From assembly GCA_052033955.1 (NCBI GenBank), contig JBPOJD010000030.1:33679-97678 (forward strand): a stretch of DNA of 64,000 bases, written 5' to 3'. Below the pieces are notes generated by a model, which was not told where the DNA came from, searched no databases, and saw nothing but the letters and a program-made list of their open reading frames with translations. The translations under genes were made by a program, and so were the position numbers. Below are positions 17,106 through 25,853 of the stretch, piece by piece; position 1 is the first letter of the stretch; each line of letters opens with the position of its first letter. This DNA is from Candidatus Hydrogenedentota bacterium (lineage in GTDB: Bacteria > Hydrogenedentota > Hydrogenedentia > Hydrogenedentales > SLHB01).

Positions 17106-17292
17106 CAGGGGCGGTCATGGCGGGTCTTGGGAAAACCTCTGGTAATCTGCCCGGCTGTTTTGCTCAATTTACACCAAGGTTCGGAGGCGCGCTGCAATTC
17201 CGCAGGCGGGCTGCTATCATGTCGGAAATCACGCTGTGGTGCGGTCGGAACATTTCCTGAAGCCGCGGCAAGGCGCCGCAAAGGGACAACAC

Positions 17293-18753
17293 ATGCTCGT
17301 GCTCGCAACCAGATCCGCGGTTTCCGTTATCGTGTTCGCCATTGTCCTGGGAGGATCCGGCTGTCACAGCACACCCTCCGCGCGGATCGTCGCGCCGGCT
17401 ACGCCTTTCGCGATACCCGAACCGCCCGAGACGACAGACGTTGCGTCGTCCGGCACGGCCGCCGTGCCGTCACAGGTCTCGTTGGCGCAAATCGTTGGCG
17501 CCCGCACGGCCCGGTCATCCAGCTGGCAGCGCAACGGCGGAAACCGGGACTTCGTCAACGTGGCCCCGGGCGCAACCGAGGTGCTGCTCGACACCGAGGG
17601 GCCGGGCATGGTGACGCACATCTACTTCACGCTGGTGGAACCGGACGTGCTGGATTTCCGCGACACGATACTCCGGATGTACTGGGATGGCGAGTCCACG
17701 CCGAGCGTCGAGGTGCCGCTGGGGGACTTCTTCTGCGTCAGCAACTGCAGGATACGCCACTTCAGCTCCGCGCTGGTGTCGGTCAATCCCGGCGGAGACG
17801 ACAAGATCGGCAACAGCGGCTACTCGTGCTACTTCCCGATGCCATTTGGCACCCATGCCCGCATCGAACTCGAAAACCAGAGTGACCGTTACCTCGGCGG
17901 CGGGTACGCGGGGCTCTGGTATCACGTCGAGTACGAGCGGTACGAGCAGCCGTTGCCGCCCGATCTGGGCCGTTTTCACGCGCAATACCGCCAGGAAACG
18001 CCCACGACGGCCGACGGGGACCCCTTTGCCCAGGAGCCGGCATTCAACCAGACCGGTGACGGGAACTTCGTCATGCTGGAGGCCGAGGGCAAGGGGCACG
18101 TGGTGGGTACGTTCCTGCAGATAGACAACCTTGCCCCGGGGTGGTACGGCGAAGGAGATGACATGATCTTCATCGATGATGATACCTGGCCGCCGTCACT
18201 CCATGGCACCGGGACCGAAGAAGTCTTTGCCGGCGGCCCGACGCCGGATGTGGAGTTCGCCGGACTGTACACGGGGTTTCTCATGGTTGAAAATGCGCAC
18301 CGCAAGGATTTCATGGGAACCAATGCCCTGTATCGGTGGTACGTGCCGGACCCCATTCGGTTTCAGAAGCGCGTCAAGATGACGATCGAACACGGCCACG
18401 CAAATCAGGCCGCGAACAACTACGCCAGTGTCACCTACTGGTACCAGCAGGAACCGCACGCGCCCTTTCCTGCACTTCCGGGCGTCGCGGAGCGTCGGCC
18501 CAATCTCCCGCAGTCCTTCTGGGAGGCGCACGACAGCGCGCAGCGCCTGTACCGGGAGTTTGTGCCGATTCGGCTCGACATGCTGTATGGCGACAAGGAA
18601 TTCGCGCGACACGAGTACCGGGCTGCCGACTACGCGGGCCGCTTTCTCAACGACGGCTGCGGCCTGATGCACATCCAGGACTACGACGGCGCCCGGCGCA
18701 TGTTCGACCGCGCCTGGGAGATCTGGACATCGAGGGAGCAATGGGCGCGGTAG
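17293..18753 (+). CDS. DUF2961/GH172-like lipoprotein, putative glycoside hydrolase.
   Basis: The lipoprotein signal is 'MLVLATRSAVSVIVFAIVLGGSGC'. The motifs 'ILRMYWDGESTPSVEVPLGDFF' and 'WYGEGDDMIFIDDDTWPPSLHGTGTEEVF' are, from memory, typical of DUF2961. The track start at 17236 is a GTG lying in the 5' UTR. Confidence 0.6.
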   Translation: MLVLATRSAVSVIVFAIVLGGSGCHSTPSARIVAPATPFAIPEPPETTDVASSGTAAVPSQVSLAQIVGARTARSSSWQRNGGNRDFVNVAPGATEVLLDTEGPGMVTHIYFTLVEPDVLDFRDTILRMYWDGESTPSVEVPLGDFFCVSNCRIRHFSSALVSVNPGGDDKIGNSGYSCYFPMPFGTHARIELENQSDRYLGGGYAGLWYHVEYERYEQPLPPDLGRFHAQYRQETPTTADGDPFAQEPAFNQTGDGNFVMLEAEGKGHVVGTFLQIDNLAPGWYGEGDDMIFIDDDTWPPSLHGTGTEEVFAGGPTPDVEFAGLYTGFLMVENAHRKDFMGTNALYRWYVPDPIRFQKRVKMTIEHGHANQAANNYASVTYWYQQEPHAPFPALPGVAERRPNLPQSFWEAHDSAQRLYREFVPIRLDMLYGDKEFARHEYRAADYAGRFLNDGCGLMHIQDYDGARRMFDRAWEIWTSREQWAR

Positions 18754-18778
18754 CGAGGGCACGCGCCGCCGGATCCCA

Positions 18779-18807
18779 TTGCAGCGCAACAGGGCGGGTG
18801 CTATAAT
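18779..18807 (+). promoter_or_regulatory. Sigma70-type promoter TTGCAG-N17-TATAAT upstream of yebC-ruvCAB.
   Basis: There is a perfect -10 and a good -35 about 50 bp upstream of the yebC ATG. Confidence 0.5.
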
Positions 18808-18855
18808 TCCGCTGTTATCGAAGCTCGAAACGTCTATACCGGGAGATTTTAGCGT

Positions 18856-19608
18856 ATGTCGGGTCATTCCAAGTGGAGTACCATCAAACGGAAGAAGGGC
18901 GCTGCGGACGCCAAGCGCGGGAAGATCTTCTCGCGGTTGGCGAAGGAAATCGCCATGGCGGCGAAGGCGGGCGGCGGCGATCCGGAGATGAACCCGAAGC
19001 TGCGCACGGTGCTGCTTGCCGCCAAGGGCCAGAACATGCCGAAGGAGAACGTCGATCGCGCGATCAAGCGCGGTACGGGCGAGCTTCCGGGGGTCAGTTA
19101 CGAGGAGAACCGGTATGAGGGCTACGGATCCGCCGGGGTGGCGCTGATCATCGACGTCCTCACCGACAATAAGAACCGCACGGTGGCGGAGATTCGCCAC
19201 CTTCTGGGCAAGCACAACGGCAGCCTGGCCGAGTCGGGCGCGGTGACGTGGAACTTCGAGCCCCGCGGCCGCATCGTCATCGACAAGGGCGTTGCGGGCG
19301 AGGAGGCGATGTTCGAGAAGGCCATCGAGGCGGGCGCGGAAGACGTGGACGCCGAGGGCGACGTGTATGTGGTCTATACGGCCCCGCAGGATGTGCATGC
19401 CGTGGCGGAGGCGTTTGCGGGCATGGGCATCGAGGCCCAGGAAATCGAGCTGATCATGCATCCGAAGACGACCATCAAGGTCGAGGGCAAGGAGGCGATC
19501 TCGCTGCTCAAGCTGATGGACGCGCTCGAGGAACACGACGACGTGCAGAACGTCTTCGCCAATTTCGACATCTCGGAAGAGGACATGGCGGCATTCGCGG
19601 CGGAGTAA
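18856..19608 (+). CDS. yebC: YebC/PmpR family DNA-binding transcriptional regulator.
   Basis: The N-terminus reads 'MSGHSKWSTIKRKKGAADAKRGKIFSRL'. The protein is 250 aa and sits in the conserved position upstream of ruvC. Confidence 0.92.
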   Translation: MSGHSKWSTIKRKKGAADAKRGKIFSRLAKEIAMAAKAGGGDPEMNPKLRTVLLAAKGQNMPKENVDRAIKRGTGELPGVSYEENRYEGYGSAGVALIIDVLTDNKNRTVAEIRHLLGKHNGSLAESGAVTWNFEPRGRIVIDKGVAGEEAMFEKAIEAGAEDVDAEGDVYVVYTAPQDVHAVAEAFAGMGIEAQEIELIMHPKTTIKVEGKEAISLLKLMDALEEHDDVQNVFANFDISEEDMAAFAAE

Positions 19609-19635
19609 ACCACCCCTGCGGGGCAGGATGGGCGG

Positions 19636-20124
19636 GTGCGGATACTTGGTTTTGATCCCGGCACGGCTACCACGGGCTACGGCGTCGTGGAAGGGCGGGG
19701 GAACCGGCTCACCTACATCGCCCACGGGGTCATCGCCACGCCACCGCACACCCACTTCGCGTTGCGCCTGAAGAGCATCCACGAACAGGCCAGCGAACTG
19801 CTGGCGGCCCACCGGCCCGACGCCGTTGCCATCGAGAAGTTGTTCTTCTCGCAGAACGTCACCACGGGCATTGCCGTGGCCCAGGCGCGCGGGGTCATCG
19901 CGGTCGCGGTGGCCATGGCGGGCATTCCCATCGCCGAGTTCAGCCCGCTGGAGGTGAAGAGCGCCGTGGTGGGCTACGGGAAGGCCACGAAACGCCAGGT
20001 GCAGGAAATGGTGAAGATCCTGCTCAATCTGGACGACATCCCCCGGCCCGACGATGCCGCGGACGCCCTCGGGCTGGCGATCTGCCAGTATCACACCGGG
20101 GCCGCCACGCTCTCCCAGCTCTAA
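19636..20124 (+). CDS. ruvC: Holliday junction resolvase RuvC.
   Basis: The N-terminus 'MRILGFDPGTATTGYGVV' is the RuvC catalytic fold. The protein is 162 aa. Confidence 0.93.
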   Translation: MRILGFDPGTATTGYGVVEGRGNRLTYIAHGVIATPPHTHFALRLKSIHEQASELLAAHRPDAVAIEKLFFSQNVTTGIAVAQARGVIAVAVAMAGIPIAEFSPLEVKSAVVGYGKATKRQVQEMVKILLNLDDIPRPDDAADALGLAICQYHTGAATLSQL

Positions 20125-20133
20125 GGAGGTCCG

Positions 20134-20736
20134 ATGTTTGCTTTCCTTCGGGGAACGGTCGCCGAAAAAGGCCCCAACCGCATCGTCCTCGATGTGGGCG
20201 GGGTCGGCTACGACCTGCGCGTATCCGACTCGACGCTGCGCCGCGTGCACACCGGCGAAGCGGCCCAGCTCGTCACCTTCTGTTATATCCGCGAAGACGC
20301 CTTCCAGATTTTCGGCTTCCTCAGCGAAGAAGAGAAGCTGCTGTTCACGGCGCTGCTGGGCATCAATCACGTGGGCCCCAAGGTGGCGCTCGCCATCCTC
20401 TCCGTGCTGAGTCCCGCGGCACTGGGCCAGGCCGTCATTCACAACGACGTGAACGCCTTTACCAAGGCGCCCGGTGTCGGCAAGAAGATGGCGCAGCGCG
20501 TCGTGCTCGAGATGAAGACCAAGCTCGGGCAGGACGCGGAACTCGAGGCGATTCTCGGGGAAGGCCCGGCCCAGGCAGACGGCGAAACCGACGATGTGGT
20601 CGAGGCGCTGTGTTCGCTCGGTTGCACCCAGGCCGAAGCCGTCAAGGCGGCTGCCGCGGCCCGCAAACAGGCCGGAGCCGACGCGCCGGACGAAGAGGTC
20701 GTGCGCGCGGCGTTGCGCTCGATGGCGAGGATCTAG
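20134..20736 (+). CDS. ruvA: Holliday junction branch migration protein RuvA.
   Basis: The protein reads 'MFAFLRGTV...[10 protein letters not shown]' and has HhH motifs ('[14 protein letters not shown]', '[15 protein letters not shown]'). Confidence 0.93.
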
Positions 20737-20740
20737 GCCC

Positions 20741-21763
20741 ATGGCACGCGAGGAAGTGATCAGTCCGGCGCCGGTCGACGACGACGGGACCTTTGACGAC
20801 CAGATCCGCCCGCAACGGCTCGAGGATTTCCCTGGGCAGGAGGCGCTGAAGGAAAAACTGCGGATCGCGATCGCGGCGGCGCGGCAGCGCCAGGAGCCGC
20901 TCGACCACCTGCTCATGTGCGGGCCGCCGGGGCTCGGCAAGACGACCCTCGCCCGCATCCTTGCCAACGAGATGGGCGTGGCGATGAAGGCCACCTCCGG
21001 CCCGGTGATCGAACGCCAAGCCGATCTGTCGGCGATCCTCACCAGCCTCGAGGCCTTCGACGTGCTGTTTATCGACGAGATTCACCGCCTCAATCGCGCC
21101 GTCGAGGAGACACTGTACTCCGCGATGGAGGATTTCGAGGTGGACATCATGCTCGGCAAAGGCCCCACGGCGCGGTCGATGAAGATCGGGCTCAAGCCCT
21201 TTACCCTGATCGGCGCGACCACGCGCGCTGGCCTGCTGACCCCGCCCCTGCGCGCCCGCTTCGGCGACATCTGCCGCTTCGACTTCTATTCGCCCGAGGA
21301 GTTGCAGTGCATCGTACTGCGCTCGGCCCGCATCCTCGACGTGCCCATCGAAGACGACGGCGGCCTCGAGATCGCCGCGCGGTCCCGCGGGACGGCCCGC
21401 ATCGCCAACCGGCTGCTGCGGCGCGTGCGCGACTTCGCCCAGGTCAAGGGGAACGGCGTGGTCACGCAGGACATGGCGGCAAAAGGGCTCAAACTCCTGC
21501 AGATCGATGAACTCGGCCTCGACGAGATGGACCGCGTCATCCTGCGCACGCTGATCGACAAATTCAACGGCGGTCCCGTCGGGCTGTCCTCGCTCGCCGT
21601 TGCCATCGGCGAAGAGCCGCAGACCCTCGAAGAGGTTCACGAGCCGTACCTGATCCAGATCGGCTTCATGAAACGCACCCCGCAAGGCCGCGTCGTCACC
21701 CCGAACGGCTACCGCCACTTCGGCGTACACCCCCCGCAGAGCGGCCAGCCGGGCTTGTTCTGA
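20741..21763 (+). CDS. ruvB: Holliday junction ATP-dependent DNA helicase RuvB.
   Basis: The Walker A is '[11 protein letters not shown]', with sensor and winged-helix C-terminal regions. I moved the start to the ATG at 20741, directly after the ruvA stop. Confidence 0.95.
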
Positions 21764-21840
21764 GGCTGGACGGAGTTTGACAGGTTCTGGCGCAGGGGCT
21801 AGAATTCAGCGGACGCAATGGGGACGGGGATGCCCGCGGT

Positions 21841-24009
21841 GTGCGCCGGAAGGAACGCAGGATGAAACAGTACAGTTTCGGGACGTTCTTGGTGGACGAT
21901 GCCAATCGGGCCGCCTTTGAAGCGTGCCGCAACGTGGCGGACCTGCAGGATGTCGACCCGATGCCCGTCGTCCTGGTCGCGGACAAGGGCTGCGGCAAGA
22001 CCCACCTTCTCTATTCCATCGTCAACCGCGTGCGCGCGACGTCCGCCGACACCGGGCTGGCCTACATCACCGCCGACAACTTTCATCCGCGTGTGCGCGC
22101 CCTCGTGTCGGACCCGGCGCCGCTCCAACAGGCGGCGACCGCCATCCTCATGGTCGATCAGCTCGATGCCTTCGCGGACTGTCTTGACGAACTGGAAGCG
22201 GTGGTCCGCGTCTTCCTGCACTATGGCCACCCGGTAATTGTTGCGTCGCGGACGCAACCGGAACGGCTGGAGCACCTGCCGGCGGGGCTTCGCGATGTGA
22301 TGCGCGGCGGCCAGACCATCGAGATCGCGTATCCGGACGCGGCGGCGCGCGCGGAAATCATTCACCGGCAGGTCTGTGAGGAACTTGAGGCGCGCATCCG
22401 GCAACAGGAAGAAGAACTGGCCGTGTTGCGCGCGGCCGCGCCCGGGCCGCCGGAAGGCGATGCGGAGCTGGCAGCGCTTCGCGCTGAACTCGATGACTCG
22501 AAGGCGCACAGCGAGGCAGTGCAGCACGAACTCGAGCATCTGCGGGCGGAACTGGCGTTGCAGACCGCCTCGGACAAGGAGGCCCGCTATCTGCGGGGCC
22601 GGTTGGAGGCCGCCGAGCATGAGGTCGAGCGGCTGCGTGCGGATCTGGCGCACCACGCCGAGCCGCCCGCGGACACCGACGAACGCGACGCGGAACTCGC
22701 CGCGCTGCGTGCGCAACTGAGCATGGCGCAGAATGCCGCGGAGGCGGCCAAGTCCGAACTGGAAGCGCTCCGCCATGAGGCGGACGACGCGCGCGCGGAA
22801 GCCGAGGAATTGTGGGCCGAACTCGAACGGATGCAGACCGTCGCGCCGGACCCGGAGGTCGAGGCGGCCCGTCAACAGGCCACAGAGGAATTGGCTGCCT
22901 TGCGCGTGGAGGCCGCGGCGCTTCGTGTGCGGCTGGCCGAGGCCGAAGCCGCCGCGGCGGCGCCGGATCCGCAGGTGGACATCCTGCGTACCCAGCTCGA
23001 ACAGGCCCGGCGCGAGGAAGCGCAGGCCTCGCGGGAGGCGGGCGAGATGCTGCGCCGGGTAACGGCGCTGTTGACGGATGTCGAAGCCAACGGTGTCGAG
23101 CTGGCGGACCTGCCGGAGGACTTGCGCGCCGGGTTTGAGCAGGTGGAAGCGCTCATCCGGCAAGGCGTGCGCGGCCGCAACCACGAGGAACTTGAAGCGG
23201 CCCGGGCCATGGCCAATGACGCGCTGGGGCGGCTCGAGGCGCTGCGGCGTCAGTTTGACGACGAGCGGCGCACGTTGAAGCAGTCCTACAACGAAGCTTT
23301 GGCCAACCTGGAGTCGCGTCTGCTCGACGCGGGCGATGCGCGCAAGGCGCTCGAGATCGAGCGCGATGAGGCCCGTCGGGACGCAGCCACGGTGCGTACT
23401 GCGCACGAGGCCCTGCAGGCCGAAACAGAGCGGCTGTCGCAGCAGCTCAAGGCGAGCCGCGACAAGATCGAGGCAACCCAGCGCGAGGCCGAGACCATGG
23501 CGGCGGCAGCCGAGGAAGAGAGCCGGGCAGCCGAACACCGCGTGGCCTCGCTGCAGGCCGATCTGGATTTCACGCGCGACAGTGGCCGCAATGTTGGGGC
23601 CGAGCTTGCCGCGCTGCAACGACGGTTGACCGAAGCGGCGTCGGTTGCGGCCGATCTCGGCCGGCGGCTGACCATCAGCATGCAGGGCCCGGTGGAGGTA
23701 CCGCGACCCGCGGTGGCGCCGCTGTCTGCGGAGACCAAGGACGCGGAGGCGGCCTTCTTTGGCGATGCCGCGAAGGAAGACGATTTCCCGCCATTTCCCG
23801 CAGGCTTTGCCGTAGCCGGGGACGACGGCTTCGGCGATGACGACGAAGACTGCATCGACCTCGAGCGTTTTGGCGTCACCCCCAACGAACAGGACCGTCT
23901 GTCGCAGCCCTTCACGCCACTGAATCCGCGGGACCTCGAAGTGCCGGTCTCCGGCAAGCCGCGCAAGACCGGGCGCCACCCTTTCCGGGGTGAGAGCGAA
24001 GCCATCTGA
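21841..24009 (+). CDS. DnaA/Hda-like AAA+ ATPase domain fused to a ~450-aa Ala/Glu/Arg/Leu-rich coiled-coil region and an acidic C-terminal tail.
   Basis: The N-terminal ~190 aa follow the DnaA domain III pattern ('FxxFxV...N..A', 'VLVADKGCGKTHLLYSI', 'ILMVDQLDAF', 'VIVASRTQPERL...L.SR'). No DnaA domain IV is present. The rest is heptad-like low complexity. The true start may be the MKQYSF at 21862. Confidence 0.65.
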   Translation: MRRKERRMKQYSFGTFLVDDANRAAFEACRNVADLQDVDPMPVVLVADKGCGKTHLLYSIVNRVRATSADTGLAYITADNFHPRVRALVSDPAPLQQAATAILMVDQLDAFADCLDELEAVVRVFLHYGHPVIVASRTQPERLEHLPAGLRDVMRGGQTIEIAYPDAAARAEIIHRQVCEELEARIRQQEEELAVLRAAAPGPPEGDAELAALRAELDDSKAHSEAVQHELEHLRAELALQTASDKEARYLRGRLEAAEHEVERLRADLAHHAEPPADTDERDAELAALRAQLSMAQNAAEAAKSELEALRHEADDARAEAEELWAELERMQTVAPDPEVEAARQQATEELAALRVEAAALRVRLAEAEAAAAAPDPQVDILRTQLEQARREEAQASREAGEMLRRVTALLTDVEANGVELADLPEDLRAGFEQVEALIRQGVRGRNHEELEAARAMANDALGRLEALRRQFDDERRTLKQSYNEALANLESRLLDAGDARKALEIERDEARRDAATVRTAHEALQAETERLSQQLKASRDKIEATQREAETMAAAAEEESRAAEHRVASLQADLDFTRDSGRNVGAELAALQRRLTEAASVAADLGRRLTISMQGPVEVPRPAVAPLSAETKDAEAAFFGDAAKEDDFPPFPAGFAVAGDDGFGDDDEDCIDLERFGVTPNEQDRLSQPFTPLNPRDLEVPVSGKPRKTGRHPFRGESEAI

Positions 24010-24583
24010 GGTGGCCGCGTTCGAAGACAGCGTCCTGGACCTGTTCGAGACCATCCACCCGCTTGACCGCATCCCGCGCGCGGGGTATGTCCTCCGCGGA
24101 GTGACCGATCCCGAAAGCGTGGCAGCGCACAGCCATTTCGTGGCGTTGCTGGCGCTGCTCGTGCTCGACGCACACCCTGGTCTGGCTGACCGCGACACGG
24201 TGCTCGGCATGGCCCTGTTGCACGACCTCCCGGAGGCCCTGCTGATGGATATCCCGATGCCCGTCGCCGATGCCCACCTCAAGGCGGCCAAGGTCGAGGC
24301 GGAGCTGTCCATTGGCAACCAAATGCTCGCGGCCTTTCCCGAGAAATACCGGCGATGGCTCGCCGAGCTGGCCGAAGCCGTGACGGTCGAGGCCCGGCTC
24401 GTGCGCGGGCTCGACAAGTTGCAGATGATGATCAAGATCGTCATGTACCAGCGTGAGCATCGCGGACGGCTCGATGAATTCTGGAGCAATCCGCGCAATT
24501 TCGACGATTTCGGCATCGAGCCCGTGTCGCGCCTCTTCGATGCCGTCTGCCAGCGCGCAGGCAAGACCCGCCCCGCAGCATGA
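23990..24583 (+). CDS. HD-domain phosphohydrolase, YfbR-like 5'-deoxynucleotidase family.
   Basis: The HD motifs are 'ESVAAHSHFVALLAL' and 'ALLHDLPEALLMDIPMP'. It overlaps the preceding gene's stop, or starts at the in-frame GTG around 24011, which suggests translational coupling. Confidence 0.75.
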   Translation: MRAKPSEVAAFEDSVLDLFETIHPLDRIPRAGYVLRGVTDPESVAAHSHFVALLALLVLDAHPGLADRDTVLGMALLHDLPEALLMDIPMPVADAHLKAAKVEAELSIGNQMLAAFPEKYRRWLAELAEAVTVEARLVRGLDKLQMMIKIVMYQREHRGRLDEFWSNPRNFDDFGIEPVSRLFDAVCQRAGKTRPAA

Positions 24584-24599
24584 GTTGGGAAACGCCAAG

Positions 24600-24623
24600 C
24601 GCCGCCGGATGACTCCGGCGGCG
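24600..24623. terminator. Perfect 10-bp-stem hairpin (CGCCGCCGGA-tgac-TCCGGCGGCG) between convergent genes; a candidate bidirectional terminator.
   Basis: The hairpin lies between the HD-hydrolase stop (24583, +) and the gspF stop (24648, -). Confidence 0.45.
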
Positions 24624-24647
24624 CCTGCTGGGGATCTTGTCTTTGGC

Positions 24648-25853
24648 CTATGCGCCTGCTGATGCGGCGATCTGTTCGATCATGCCCACCATCGGCACAA
24701 ACAGGGCCAGCGCGAGCAGCACGACGATGATGCCGATGAACAGCGTCAGGATCGGCTGCAGGGCATCGCCGAGGGTGTCCACCTGGATGGCGACTTCCTT
24801 CTCGTAGGTGGTGCCGATCTCGTCGGCGATCTCGTCCATCGAGCCGGCTTCTTCACCGGTCAGGAGCATGTCGGCCGCCACGGGCGGGACACTCTCCTGA
24901 TGGTGCCGCAGGGGCTCTTCGAGTCCTTCGCCGCGTTCGACCGAGTCGCGCATGTCCTGGATGGCGCGCACCATGGCCTGGTTGTGGACGGCGTTGCGCA
25001 CGAGGTCCAGCGAGGCCATCATGCTGAGGCCGCTGCGGAGCAGCAGGGCCAGCGTGCGGGTGAACTCGACCATCGCGTTCTTGCGGATGATATCGCCCAC
25101 CACGGGGATGCGGAGCTTGATCCGGTCCGCGTTCAGGCGGCGCAAGGGACTGCGCACGTACCAGAGCTTGTACAGGGCGATAAGCCCGATGATGAGCAGG
25201 GCGAAGAACCACCACCAGTGGCCGAGAAAGTTCGCGACGGCGATGAATCCGCGCGAGAAGGCCGGCAGTGGCACGTTGAGCTGCTTGAACAGTTCCTCGA
25301 ACTGCGGGATGACCCATTTCGTGATGAGCAGCACGACGGCGAACGAGGCCACCACGAGGATCACCGGGTAGAGCATCGCGCCCTGCACGCGCTTGCGGAG
25401 CAGTTCACGCTCCTCGCGGTATTCCACCAGGCGGCGGAGCACGGTGGTGAGGGTACCGCTCGCCTCGCTGGCCTTGATCAAGTTGACGAAGACCGGCGGG
25501 AAGTGGCGCGGGTGACGGTCGAAGGCCTGCCAGAGCGGGTTGCCCGACTCGACATAGTTCGAGACGTCCGTCGCCAGCGCGCGGATGCCGGCGTTGTGAC
25601 CGCGAAGCGCCAGGGTGTGCAGGGCCTTGAGCAGCGGCGTGCCCGCTTCGAGCAGCATGATCAGTTGCCGCAGGAAGACCGTGATGTCGTGGTGGCGCAC
25701 CGATCCGCGCCGGAGGAGGTCCCCCCATCGCGACGGCTGGGGCTGCTCGACCCGCGATTCCTCGACCCGCGCAACGGAGACCGCGCTCTTGCTGCGGGCG
25801 CTGCGGCGCACGCGCTTGGGGCCCTCGGCCGGTTTATCGGCATTCGTGGCCAT
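24648..25853 (-). CDS. Type II secretion / type IV pilus platform protein (GspF/PilC family).
   Basis: It has two T2SSF-type repeats and three TM segments, including 'LLEAGTPLLKAL' and 'MLLTGEEAGSMDEI'. Confidence 0.85.
   Translation of the reverse strand: MATNADKPAEGPKRVRRSARSKSAVSVARVEESRVEQPQPSRWGDLLRRGSVRHHDITVFLRQLIMLLEAGTPLLKALHTLALRGHNAGIRALATDVSNYVESGNPLWQAFDRHPRHFPPVFVNLIKASEASGTLTTVLRRLVEYREERELLRKRVQGAMLYPVILVVASFAVVLLITKWVIPQFEELFKQLNVPLPAFSRGFIAVANFLGHWWWFFALLIIGLIALYKLWYVRSPLRRLNADRIKLRIPVVGDIIRKNAMVEFTRTLALLLRSGLSMMASLDLVRNAVHNQAMVRAIQDMRDSVERGEGLEEPLRHHQESVPPVAADMLLTGEEAGSMDEIADEIGTTYEKEVAIQVDTLGDALQPILTLFIGIIVVLLALALFVPMVGMIEQIAASAGA

Follow-up and report, generated by a model that had tools for sequence, protein, structure and literature searches.

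The closest described counterparts of the protein considered here are the replication initiator DnaA and its paralogue Hda. In Escherichia coli DnaA, Arg285 and the box VII residue Arg281 drive ATP-dependent head-to-tail oligomerization; Arg227, Lys243, Arg281, Arg285, and Leu290 mediate the DnaA-DnaA contacts of domain III, with Arg285, Arg281, the AID motifs, and Lys243 being required for these contacts to be functional; Val211 and Arg245 are crucial for single-stranded DNA (ssDNA) binding; and Arg334 is the sensor for ATP hydrolysis (PMC5742627). Hda, a protein of about 230-250 amino acids (aa), has an N-terminal clamp-binding motif (QL[SD]LF/QLSLPL, QLxLxL) and a lid with the sensor II residue Arg202; its box VII arginine finger, Arg153, is essential for function, and alteration of the clamp-binding motif inactivates it (PMC5397184). 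We analyzed a DnaA-like gene (gene 1) and the HD-domain gene that follows it (gene 2) in the window, that is, the whole stretch of 64,000 nucleotides (nt) from a Candidatus Hydrogenedentota bacterium, and established the architecture, motif status, phyletic range, and operon structure of gene 1, as well as its conserved coupling to gene 2. The gene 1 product would be a DnaA paralogue that keeps only the nucleotide-binding α/β core of domain III and in which the lid, sensor II, and domain IV have been replaced by an α-helical rod of ~450 residues and an acidic disordered tail. The reading we favor, held tentatively and at somewhat less than even confidence, is that of an ATP-binding, poorly hydrolyzing or non-hydrolyzing head on a scaffold or adaptor that works with the HD nucleotidase encoded by gene 2.

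The kinship of the head with DnaA is supported by profile, sequence, and structure comparisons. Residues 9-160 match Pfam PF00308 (Bac_DnaA) over profile positions 3-161 of 162, at 58.9 bits versus a cutoff of 23 (E=9e-16), which passes the threshold for the Bac_DnaA superfamily, and DnaA ranked first in a sequence search of the PDB with the gene 1 protein (8bv3, E=4.5e-7). When residues 1-200 were modeled with AlphaFold (AF2) from 24 family sequences, the resulting model had a five-stranded β-α-β core (predicted local distance difference test score [pLDDT] 88; predicted template modeling score [pTM] 0.77). When searched with Foldseek, this model retrieved (i) DnaA domain III as the best match (8bv3, E=1e-10, template modeling score [TM] 0.70), (ii) Hda as the second (3bos and 5x06, E=4e-8, TM 0.65), and (iii) thereafter ORC (Orc4), DnaI, and clamp-loader subunits. 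The head thus has the same α/β fold as DnaA domain III (8bv3, 1l8q, 2z4r, and 2hcb) and also shares with it an F-x-x-F-x-V-x-x-x-N motif at the N terminus, a Walker A motif of the GxGKTHL type, a Walker B motif of the hhhhD type, and a reduced insertion resembling the initiator-specific motif (ISM). The match to the DnaA model TIGR00362 (68 bits versus a cutoff of 344) covers only model positions 104-284 of 437, and the protein therefore has no lid past its first helix and no domain IV; neither domain I (PF11638) nor the DNA-binding domain IV (PF08299) was detected in a Pfam scan at E<=1. The Hda model TIGR03420 scored 35.9 bits versus a cutoff of 194.8. An earlier interpretation made from the letters of this stretch alone (the sequence-only reading) had proposed a DnaA/Hda AAA+ module without domain IV at the N terminus, had suggested structure prediction and comparison of the N-terminal 200 aa as a check, and had called the architecture non-standard; all of this agrees with our results. 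The architecture is also uncharacterized. PF00308 also matched 82 of the 83 family members that were scanned with Pfam, which otherwise yielded coiled-coil noise and, in one member, an MshEN domain. NCBI annotates the relatives as 'hypothetical' or as 'DnaA/Hda family protein'. The precomputed annotation of one relative (P0001) lists PF27935.1 beside PF00308; this may be an existing Pfam entry for part of the gene 1 protein, and it was not among the Pfam matches of the window protein at E<=1.

To map the functional motifs, 165 family heads were aligned with E. coli DnaA and eight other DnaAs; E. coli numbering is used for DnaA residues, and residue roles follow PMC5742627. The nucleotide pocket is retained. 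In the Walker A motif, Gly45, Lys46, and Thr/Ser47 are kept in 163-164 of the 165 relatives (Lys46 in 163), and the corresponding DnaA positions Gly172, Gly175, Gly177, Lys178, and Thr179 are likewise kept, the last three in at least 163. The Mg-binding aspartate of Walker B, Asp99 (DnaA Asp235), is present in 163 of 165 heads, and the alignment points to strong constraint on both it and the P-loop. The next position, residue 100 (DnaA Asp236), is Gln in 87 relatives, Glu in 26, Asp in 20, and another residue in 32; the basal lineages have Asp-Glu (VDE), and the crown group, including the window protein, has Asp-Gln (VDQ). An Asp-Gln pair in Walker B is a classic hydrolysis-dead substitution.

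The remaining motifs of DnaA domain III are not kept. Glu204 and Lys243 are replaced in the family; the sensor I residue Asp269 is Ser, Asn, or Arg; and the AID-1 residue Arg227 and the AID-2 residue Leu290 have become Ala or Gly and Gln or Arg, respectively. The box VII residue Arg281 is mostly Gly (Gly142 in the window protein). The arginine finger, Arg285, is Val146 in the window protein, and this column holds Leu in 79, Ile in 32, Met in 12, Val in 9, and Arg in only 10 relatives, with Leu, Ile, Met, Val, or Ala accounting for 139 of 165. The window sequence at the place of box VII reads LRDVMRGG and has no box VII arginines, so that the box VII-like 'L.SR' pattern claimed for it in the sequence-only reading is not there. 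Among the ssDNA-binding residues, Val211 in the H-motif is a conserved Arg in 138 of 165 heads and Arg245 in the B-motif is acidic (Asp or Glu) in 104. The column of the sensor II residue, Arg334, falls within the rod, which takes the place of the lid. Moreover, none of the 165 family proteins has a β-clamp-binding motif in its first 15 or last 130 residues; the DnaN-binding motif that had been proposed for a check at the N terminus is thus not found, and, with the lid and sensor II missing as well, an Hda-type mechanism is not supported. Judged from these alignments, every DnaA residue that serves catalysis, head-to-tail oligomerization, or ssDNA binding has been replaced in the family.

Because the arginine finger, box VII, the sensors, the lid, the ssDNA motifs, domain IV, and the clamp motif are absent, the gene 1 protein is neither DnaA nor Hda. 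Unlike DnaA, it has no domain I, II, or IV, no lid, and no sensor II, carries Asp-Gln in Walker B, and adds a rod and a tail; with Hda it shares the condition of a DnaA-domain-III-only paralogue without a DNA-binding domain, whereas it has no clamp motif, arginine finger, or lid with sensor II, and Hda has no coiled coil. The family is best described as a conserved variant within the DnaA/Hda AAA+ family that belongs to neither functional class. Since the pocket is kept, the functional residues of DnaA are replaced, and Walker B reads Asp-Gln, the head would act as an ATP/ADP-binding, slowly hydrolyzing or non-hydrolyzing sensor or latch, and neither as a motor nor as an initiator.

The head is followed by a rod and a tail. 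In the full-length AF2 model, the rod consists of helices at residues 160-192, 200-265, 272-325, 334-366, 370-436, and 441-607, and the breaks between them are formed by Pro or Gly and coincide with Pro clusters. Its composition (22% Ala, 16% Glu, 12% Leu, and 12% Arg) fits the Ala/Glu/Arg/Leu-rich segment of ~450 aa that the sequence-only reading had described as a coiled coil, and the acidic tail noted there is disordered in the model as well. The net charges of head, rod, and tail are -7, -39, and -10, respectively; the whole protein is therefore acidic, which argues against DNA binding. In the rod, searches of Pfam, NCBIfam, and PADLOC gave coiled-coil noise only. In an alignment of the window protein with 147 full-length relatives (148 sequences), two boxes of the rod, A and B, are conserved, the latter with the consensus ...ALR.EAA.QVA.A...AGE.E.R...L..., and residues 241-360 form a lineage-specific insert (occupancy 0.6 or less, top-residue frequency 0.25 or less). 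The tail of the window protein terminates in ...GESEAI; a terminal D-x-S-I motif recurs in a subset of relatives, and 96% of all relatives carry a net negative charge over their last 100 aa, with a median of -12. Protein length among the relatives varies from 342 to 989 aa. The rod would most likely be a dimeric coiled coil of up to roughly 65 nm if extended, and rod and tail together would serve as a scaffold or adaptor.

One variant departs from this plan at its C terminus. In the most basal variant (P0025/P0026, locus L008, 8001-10292), an MshEN (T2SSE_N) domain stands in place of the acidic tail, and by eye it contains two tandem copies resembling the 24-residue motif that binds cyclic di-GMP (c-di-GMP; ...LGDILCRMGAITKAQLGKALIAQ / RLGELLVEQGAVTEDRVLQAVARQ). 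As far as such resemblance goes, this MshEN domain may tie the DnaA-like head to c-di-GMP signaling or to pilus/secretion ATPase partners.

Gene 2 encodes an HD-domain phosphohydrolase that matches PF13023 (HD_3) with 81.6 bits versus a cutoff of 22.5 (E=8e-23) and PF12917 with E=5e-12. The H...HD...D metal ligands are intact (His47, His78-Asp79, Glu82, and Asp142, with the HD dyad at 24221-24226), and His47, His78-Asp79, and Asp142 align with their counterparts in PH0347 and PF0395. Its sequence relatives in the PDB are 2cqz (Pyrococcus PH0347), 1xx7, human HDDC2 (4dmb), and yeast YGL101W (5yox). Gene 2 thus has the same single HD domain as the HD_3 5'-nucleotidases E. coli YfbR, HDDC2, YGK1/YGL101W, and PH0347, and the YfbR-like HD nucleotidase that had been seen downstream of gene 1 is upheld at the level of the family; as a YfbR equivalog the protein does not qualify (NF003009, 24.8 bits versus a cutoff of 122). 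PADLOC returned no match for it. Across the phylum, HD proteins are 55-64% identical, versus about 30-45% for gene 1 proteins. The start codon supported by homology, from alignment with a relative that is 74% identical to gene 1 (locus L001), is GTG 24011, located 1 nt after the gene 1 stop, whereas the alternative GTG 23990 would produce a 20-nt overlap. Tight coupling, as the sequence-only reading had proposed, holds under either choice; the overlap with the stop codon that it described depends on the start at GTG 23990. We know of no other HD_3 gene that is coupled to a DnaA-like gene, no systematic search for one having been made.

The conservation of this coupling was examined by tblastn and open reading frame (ORF) clustering over 38 loci, 33 of which could be assessed for the HD gene. 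In 15 of these 33, the HD gene lies directly downstream of gene 1. Counted from the end of gene 1 to the nearest in-frame HD start, the spacing is -4 nt (n=3), -1 nt (n=1), +4 nt (n=1), +6 nt (n=1), +9 nt (n=2), or +14 nt (n=1, L001), with -8 or +28 nt in L033 and either +1 or -20 nt in the window. Overall, it lies between -4 and +14 nt in 11 of the 15 loci, ATGA-type overlaps among them, and is larger or ambiguous in the other 4. When the heads are placed in a neighbor-joining tree with DnaA as the root, a downstream HD gene is present in all assessable basal lineages (L030-L039, 435-610 aa), and in a subclade of 860-930 aa the HD adjacency has been lost and a PP2C phosphatase gene is the neighbor instead. 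Since all assessable basal lineages carry the HD gene, the pairing is probably ancestral, with translational coupling, and can be lost; of the adjacency that the sequence-only reading had proposed to check, its reality stands and its universality does not. Where the pairing is kept, the gene 1 protein would be produced at a constant ratio to the HD 5'-(deoxy)nucleotidase of the downstream gene and would probably bind or position this enzyme.

The family is specific to the phylum Hydrogenedentota and widespread within it. A word-indexed search returned 26 relatives of similar architecture, the named ones being proteins of metagenome-assembled genomes of Candidatus Hydrogenedentes, and an exhaustive search with a head profile gave 203 clusters (50% identity) at E<=1e-30. 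In nearly all of the best-scoring 150 of these 203 clusters, the head domain begins no later than about residue 25; most of the proteins have about 430-990 aa, alongside shorter entries of 168-429 aa. A scan of GTDB with one genome per species found 31 loci, all in Hydrogenedentota (a few of them labeled 'Nitrospiraceae'), and the next matches after the family were ordinary DnaA genes of about 25% identity. Two DnaA-like matches, P0030 and P0031, are Actinomycetota DnaAs (Solirubrobacterales, Thermoleophilia); when Actinomycetota DnaAs were compared by tblastn with 39 loci and the window, only the family heads matched. In none of the 38 loci does the family gene lie beside dnaA or dnaN. Two Gemmatimonadales proteins (P0028 and P0029, locus L085; 658-673 aa), annotated 'DnaA/Hda family protein', contain two DnaA-domain-III modules in tandem, both of which have a Walker A and a box VII-like motif, and lack domains I and IV; they represent another non-canonical DnaA-family architecture in a different phylum. 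A literature search for DnaA-like coiled-coil proteins and for DnaA of Hydrogenedentes found nothing relevant, and none of the papers covered describes the family of gene 1.

Another neighbor of the family gene is a membrane-anchored PP2C phosphatase gene, which in 13 crown-group loci lies divergently upstream. In a crown subclade (L004, L009, L011, L012, L014, L018, L019, and L028), a conserved upstream block reads J-domain-like / unknown / PHP-like / signal peptidase S26 / Metallophos (LpxH-like) / PP2C (minus strand), the PP2C gene always being divergent. A theme of dNTP metabolism was rejected as coincidence, because a gene of the R2-like family (ribonucleotide reductase [RNR] small subunit) is near only 2 loci; the candidate RNR 'large subunit' cluster is an unrelated hydrolase. 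Converging on gene 2, the minus strand carries from 24648 to about 28000 an operon similar to those for type II secretion or type IV pili (T2SSF, T2SSK-like, T2SSJ-like, and N-methyl prepilins). The convergent T2SSF/K/J operon occurs at the family gene only in the window and L001; in L004, the region 4-6 kb downstream of the family gene holds genes for MshEN-HDOD and MshEN-T2SSE proteins. A link to type II secretion or type IV pili was considered suggestive and too sparse to be adopted (fused MshEN in 1 of 83 members).

Expression signals set gene 1 apart from the genes upstream. A sigma-70-type promoter-like site (TTGACA-17 nt-TAGAAT) lies 56 nt upstream of the ATG within the 98-nt gap after ruvB; it is unique within 18700-24800 (shuffle mean 0.4), and the whole window has 9 sites with at least 10 of 12 promoter matches. 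A site of the form TTGAC[AT]-17-TA[GCA]AAT is found upstream of the family gene in almost all of 35 loci; its distance to the start codon is mostly 30-45 nt, and the spacer is always 17 nt (loci L001-L039 and the window). This site shows the appearance of housekeeping promoters in Hydrogenedentota, and its conservation suggests strong constitutive expression of the family gene. The host genomes have about 65% GC, where near-consensus sigma-70 sites are rare. No recurrent DnaA box (TTWTNCACA, <=1 mismatch) was found from -300 to +30 nt of each family gene. Downstream, the region 24584-24650 between the convergent HD and T2SSF-like genes folds with -35.8 kcal/mol (z = -3.4) and contains a terminator-like match at 24613-24633. 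Owing to the promoter-like site and the terminator hairpins, gene 1 and the HD gene are regarded as a transcription unit of their own in which the placement after ruvB is incidental. The position directly after ruvB, which the sequence-only reading had stressed, is correct as such; a functional link is not supported, since ruvAB precedes the family gene only in the window and in L001. Co-transcription with ruvB may occur and would be incidental, given the separate promoter-like site and the adjacency that is not conserved.

For the reading we favor, we infer nucleotide binding without turnover, a dimeric coiled coil, and a physical or functional partnership with the HD enzyme; as to the cellular process, nucleotide homeostasis or cell-cycle control is a guess. 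Several observations weigh against it. An AAA+ core without a lid may bind nucleotide only weakly, and the residue after the Walker B aspartate is acidic in 46 of 165 members, including the Asp-Glu basal lineages, so that some members may hydrolyze ATP. The 3.5-residue periodicity of the rod is present and modest, with about 16-20% core hydrophobic residues, and parts of the rod could be single helices or helical bundles and not a canonical coiled coil. Moreover, about half of the lineages, the 860-930-aa subclade among them, have no adjoining HD gene, and therefore either an obligate complex is not required or the HD gene has moved; the neighboring genes point to no coherent process.

Two rival explanations come next. 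In one, which we consider rather unlikely, the protein regulates replication initiation by acting directly on DnaA: its head would dock onto domain III as a 'poison' or capping subunit, or it would tether DnaA via the rod, in functional analogy to YabA or Hda and by a different mechanism. Degenerate AAA+ paralogues often remain in the complex of their active relatives, and, its ATP pocket being intact, the head might in principle receive the Arg285 finger of DnaA. YabA, the DnaA/DnaN hub of Bacillus subtilis, has about 120 aa, a Zn-binding C-terminal domain, and no AAA+ fold; it resembles gene 1 in concept only, as a coiled-coil stalk with a module that addresses the initiator, and is not its kin in sequence or structure. 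By profiles, PDB search, Foldseek, and the neighbor-joining tree, the head is closer to DnaA than to other AAA+ proteins, and every characterized PF00308-only protein (Hda/HdaA) regulates DnaA (PMC5397184, PMC3836487). However, the residues through which domain III modules touch one another (Arg227, Lys243, Arg281, Arg285, and Leu290; PMC5742627) are all replaced in the family, and the absence of DnaA boxes from the conserved promoter regions, of dnaA and dnaN from the neighborhoods, and of a clamp-binding motif also speaks against such a role. In the other, likewise unlikely and placed slightly lower in our ranking, the protein is an autonomous cytoskeletal or polar scaffold following the logic of Scy, FilP, DivIVA, or FrzS, with a nucleotide-bound head controlling self-assembly, Ser/Thr phosphorylation (PP2C) regulating it, and the HD neighbor being only a co-transcribed housekeeping gene. 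FrzS and AglZ of Myxococcus and Scy and FilP of Streptomyces are coiled-coil scaffolds the heads of which are receiver domains or absent; they are alike in combining an N-terminal globular domain of a signaling type with a long, variable, and poorly conserved coiled coil, but none has an AAA+/DnaA-type P-loop head. The long rod of variable length with its two conserved boxes, a weak intermediate-filament match in Pfam (E=1.7e-4, below cutoff), the divergent membrane-anchored PP2C of the crown group, the strong conserved promoter suggestive of an abundant protein, and the basal variant with MshEN in place of the acidic tail would all suit this scaffold. Yet the PP2C adjacency is absent in the window and in the basal lineages, where tight HD coupling suggests more than chance co-transcription.

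Two further explanations are very improbable. A true Hda-type factor of RIDA (regulatory inactivation of DnaA), or a divergent second DnaA initiator, would agree with the PF00308 domain and with the NCBI annotation of relatives; it is contradicted by scores below both NCBIfam cutoffs (DnaA 68 vs 344; Hda 36 vs 195) and by the lack of an arginine finger, lid, sensor II, clamp-binding motif, domain I, and domain IV. Just as hard to credit is an SMC/Rad50-like DNA organizer, as the sequence-only reading had considered, or an anti-phage defense or mobile-element module, for which weak matches to SMC, Rad50, JetC, and LmuB might be cited: these are coiled-coil noise confined to the rod, those to SMC-type models at 15-31 bits versus cutoffs of 300-1087. 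Foldseek identifies the head as AAA+ and not ABC, head halves of an ABC ATPase are absent, as is a hinge, and the protein is strongly acidic; PADLOC matched only coiled-coil segments of JetC, LmuB, and DndD (E>=2.8e-5) and left the HD protein unmatched. The wide occurrence in one phylum (31 of 31 genome matches), in varied housekeeping contexts and with a housekeeping-type promoter, also disfavors a defense or mobile element.

Beyond the favored head-on-scaffold reading with its HD partner, a wider conjecture, rather unlikely, is that a replication-initiator AAA+ module has been recruited to form the ATP-locked head of a coiled-coil scaffold present throughout the phylum, within a hitherto undescribed nucleotide-sensing or cell-cycle module that includes the co-translated HD 5'-nucleotidase and, in the crown group, the membrane PP2C. 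Such a module would be either a tether that caps DnaA and links initiation to the clearance of (d)NMPs or a new nucleotide-gated cytoskeletal element of bacteria.

The ORF of gene 1 is intact on the plus strand (21841/21862-24009), with a GTG at 21841 in frame upstream of the ATG. All homologues open with MK(R/Q)(F/Y)(S/N)FGTF, the equivalent Met of which is ATG 21862, and the Shine-Dalgarno-like GGAAGGAA stands 5' of this codon; gene 1 therefore encodes 715 aa and not the 722 aa that a start at GTG 21841, as read earlier, would give. The relative P0001 (97% identity) also has 715 aa. Compared with L001, gene 1 differs mainly at codon position 3 in all three regions, the head having differing fractions of 0.36 at position 3 and 0.07 at position 2, the rod of 0.48 and 0.11, and the tail of 0.57 and 0.19, a pattern indicative of purifying selection on each of them. 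The antisense ORFs of 921 aa (21799-24564, minus strand) and 228 aa (23912-24598) have zero Pfam matches and were rejected as genes, their GC content at codon position 3 (GC3) being common with the sense frame; with the divergence pattern, the lack of a Pfam match for the antisense ORF supports the plus-strand frame of gene 1 as real. A second long antisense ORF (948 aa, 18196-21042, minus strand) spans yebC-ruvCAB in the way the 921-aa ORF covers gene 1; both fooled a naive length-times-GC3 gene caller and are typical high-GC shadow ORFs. Upstream of yebC, an ORF of 505 aa (17236-18753, plus strand) resembles, by eye, proteins of the GH172/DUF2961 type; proteins of this type are also encoded close to the family gene in L006 and L033 and probably belong to unrelated polysaccharide metabolism. 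The coordinates of the features are collected in Table 1.

Table 1. Features of gene 1, gene 2, and their surroundings (window coordinates; residues refer to the gene 1 protein)
Feature	Positions	Strand	Remarks
yebC	18856-19608	+	
ruvC	19636-20124	+	
ruvA	20134-20736	+	
ruvB	about 20741-21763	+	stop 98 nt upstream of the DnaA-like gene
Sigma-70-type promoter-like site	21777-21805	+	11/12 matches; ruvB/gene 1 intergenic region
Coding sequence, DnaA-derived coiled-coil protein (gene 1)	21862-24009	+	715 aa plus stop
AAA+ α/β core, homologous to DnaA domain IIIa, residues 1-155	21862-22326	+	
Walker A (P-loop) ADKGCGKT, residues 40-47	21979-22002	+	
Walker B ILMVDQ, residues 95-100	22144-22161	+	Mg-binding Asp99 kept; next acidic residue is Gln
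α-Helical, coiled-coil-like rod, residues 160-607	22339-23682	+	full-length AF2 model, composition
Conserved rod box A, residues 368-435	22963-23166	+	occupancy about 0.94; mean top-residue frequency 0.33-0.45
Conserved rod box B, residues 511-600	23392-23661	+	occupancy about 0.95; mean top-residue frequency up to 0.54
Acidic Pro/Asp/Phe-rich disordered C-terminal tail, residues 608-715	23683-24006	+	pLDDT below 50
Coding sequence, HD_3 (HDDC2/YGK1/YfbR-like) metal-dependent phosphohydrolase (gene 2)	24011-24583	+	alternative GTG start 23990
Two GC-rich hairpins between convergent HD and T2SSF-like genes	24599-24647	.	probable bidirectional terminator
T2SSF-like gene	24648-25853	-	convergent with the HD gene

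The impact of these findings is limited for now, as the Hydrogenedentota are uncultured and the function of gene 1 is deduced only. To our knowledge, DnaA-domain-III-only proteins have so far been known solely as Hda-type switches that turn DnaA off. The present family points to a different evolutionary route, in which the catalytic, oligomerization, and DNA-binding residues are stripped away and the nucleotide pocket is kept on a long rod. Should the head be a latch with bound ATP, nature would here be using the Glu-to-Gln 'trap' state as a design principle; should it still address DnaA, the family would add a new class to the regulators of initiation, in a phylum without a cultured member. 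In addition, the coupling to the HD gene provides a testable partner for enzymes of the HDDC2/YGK1 type, the physiological role of which is poorly defined, including in humans and yeast.

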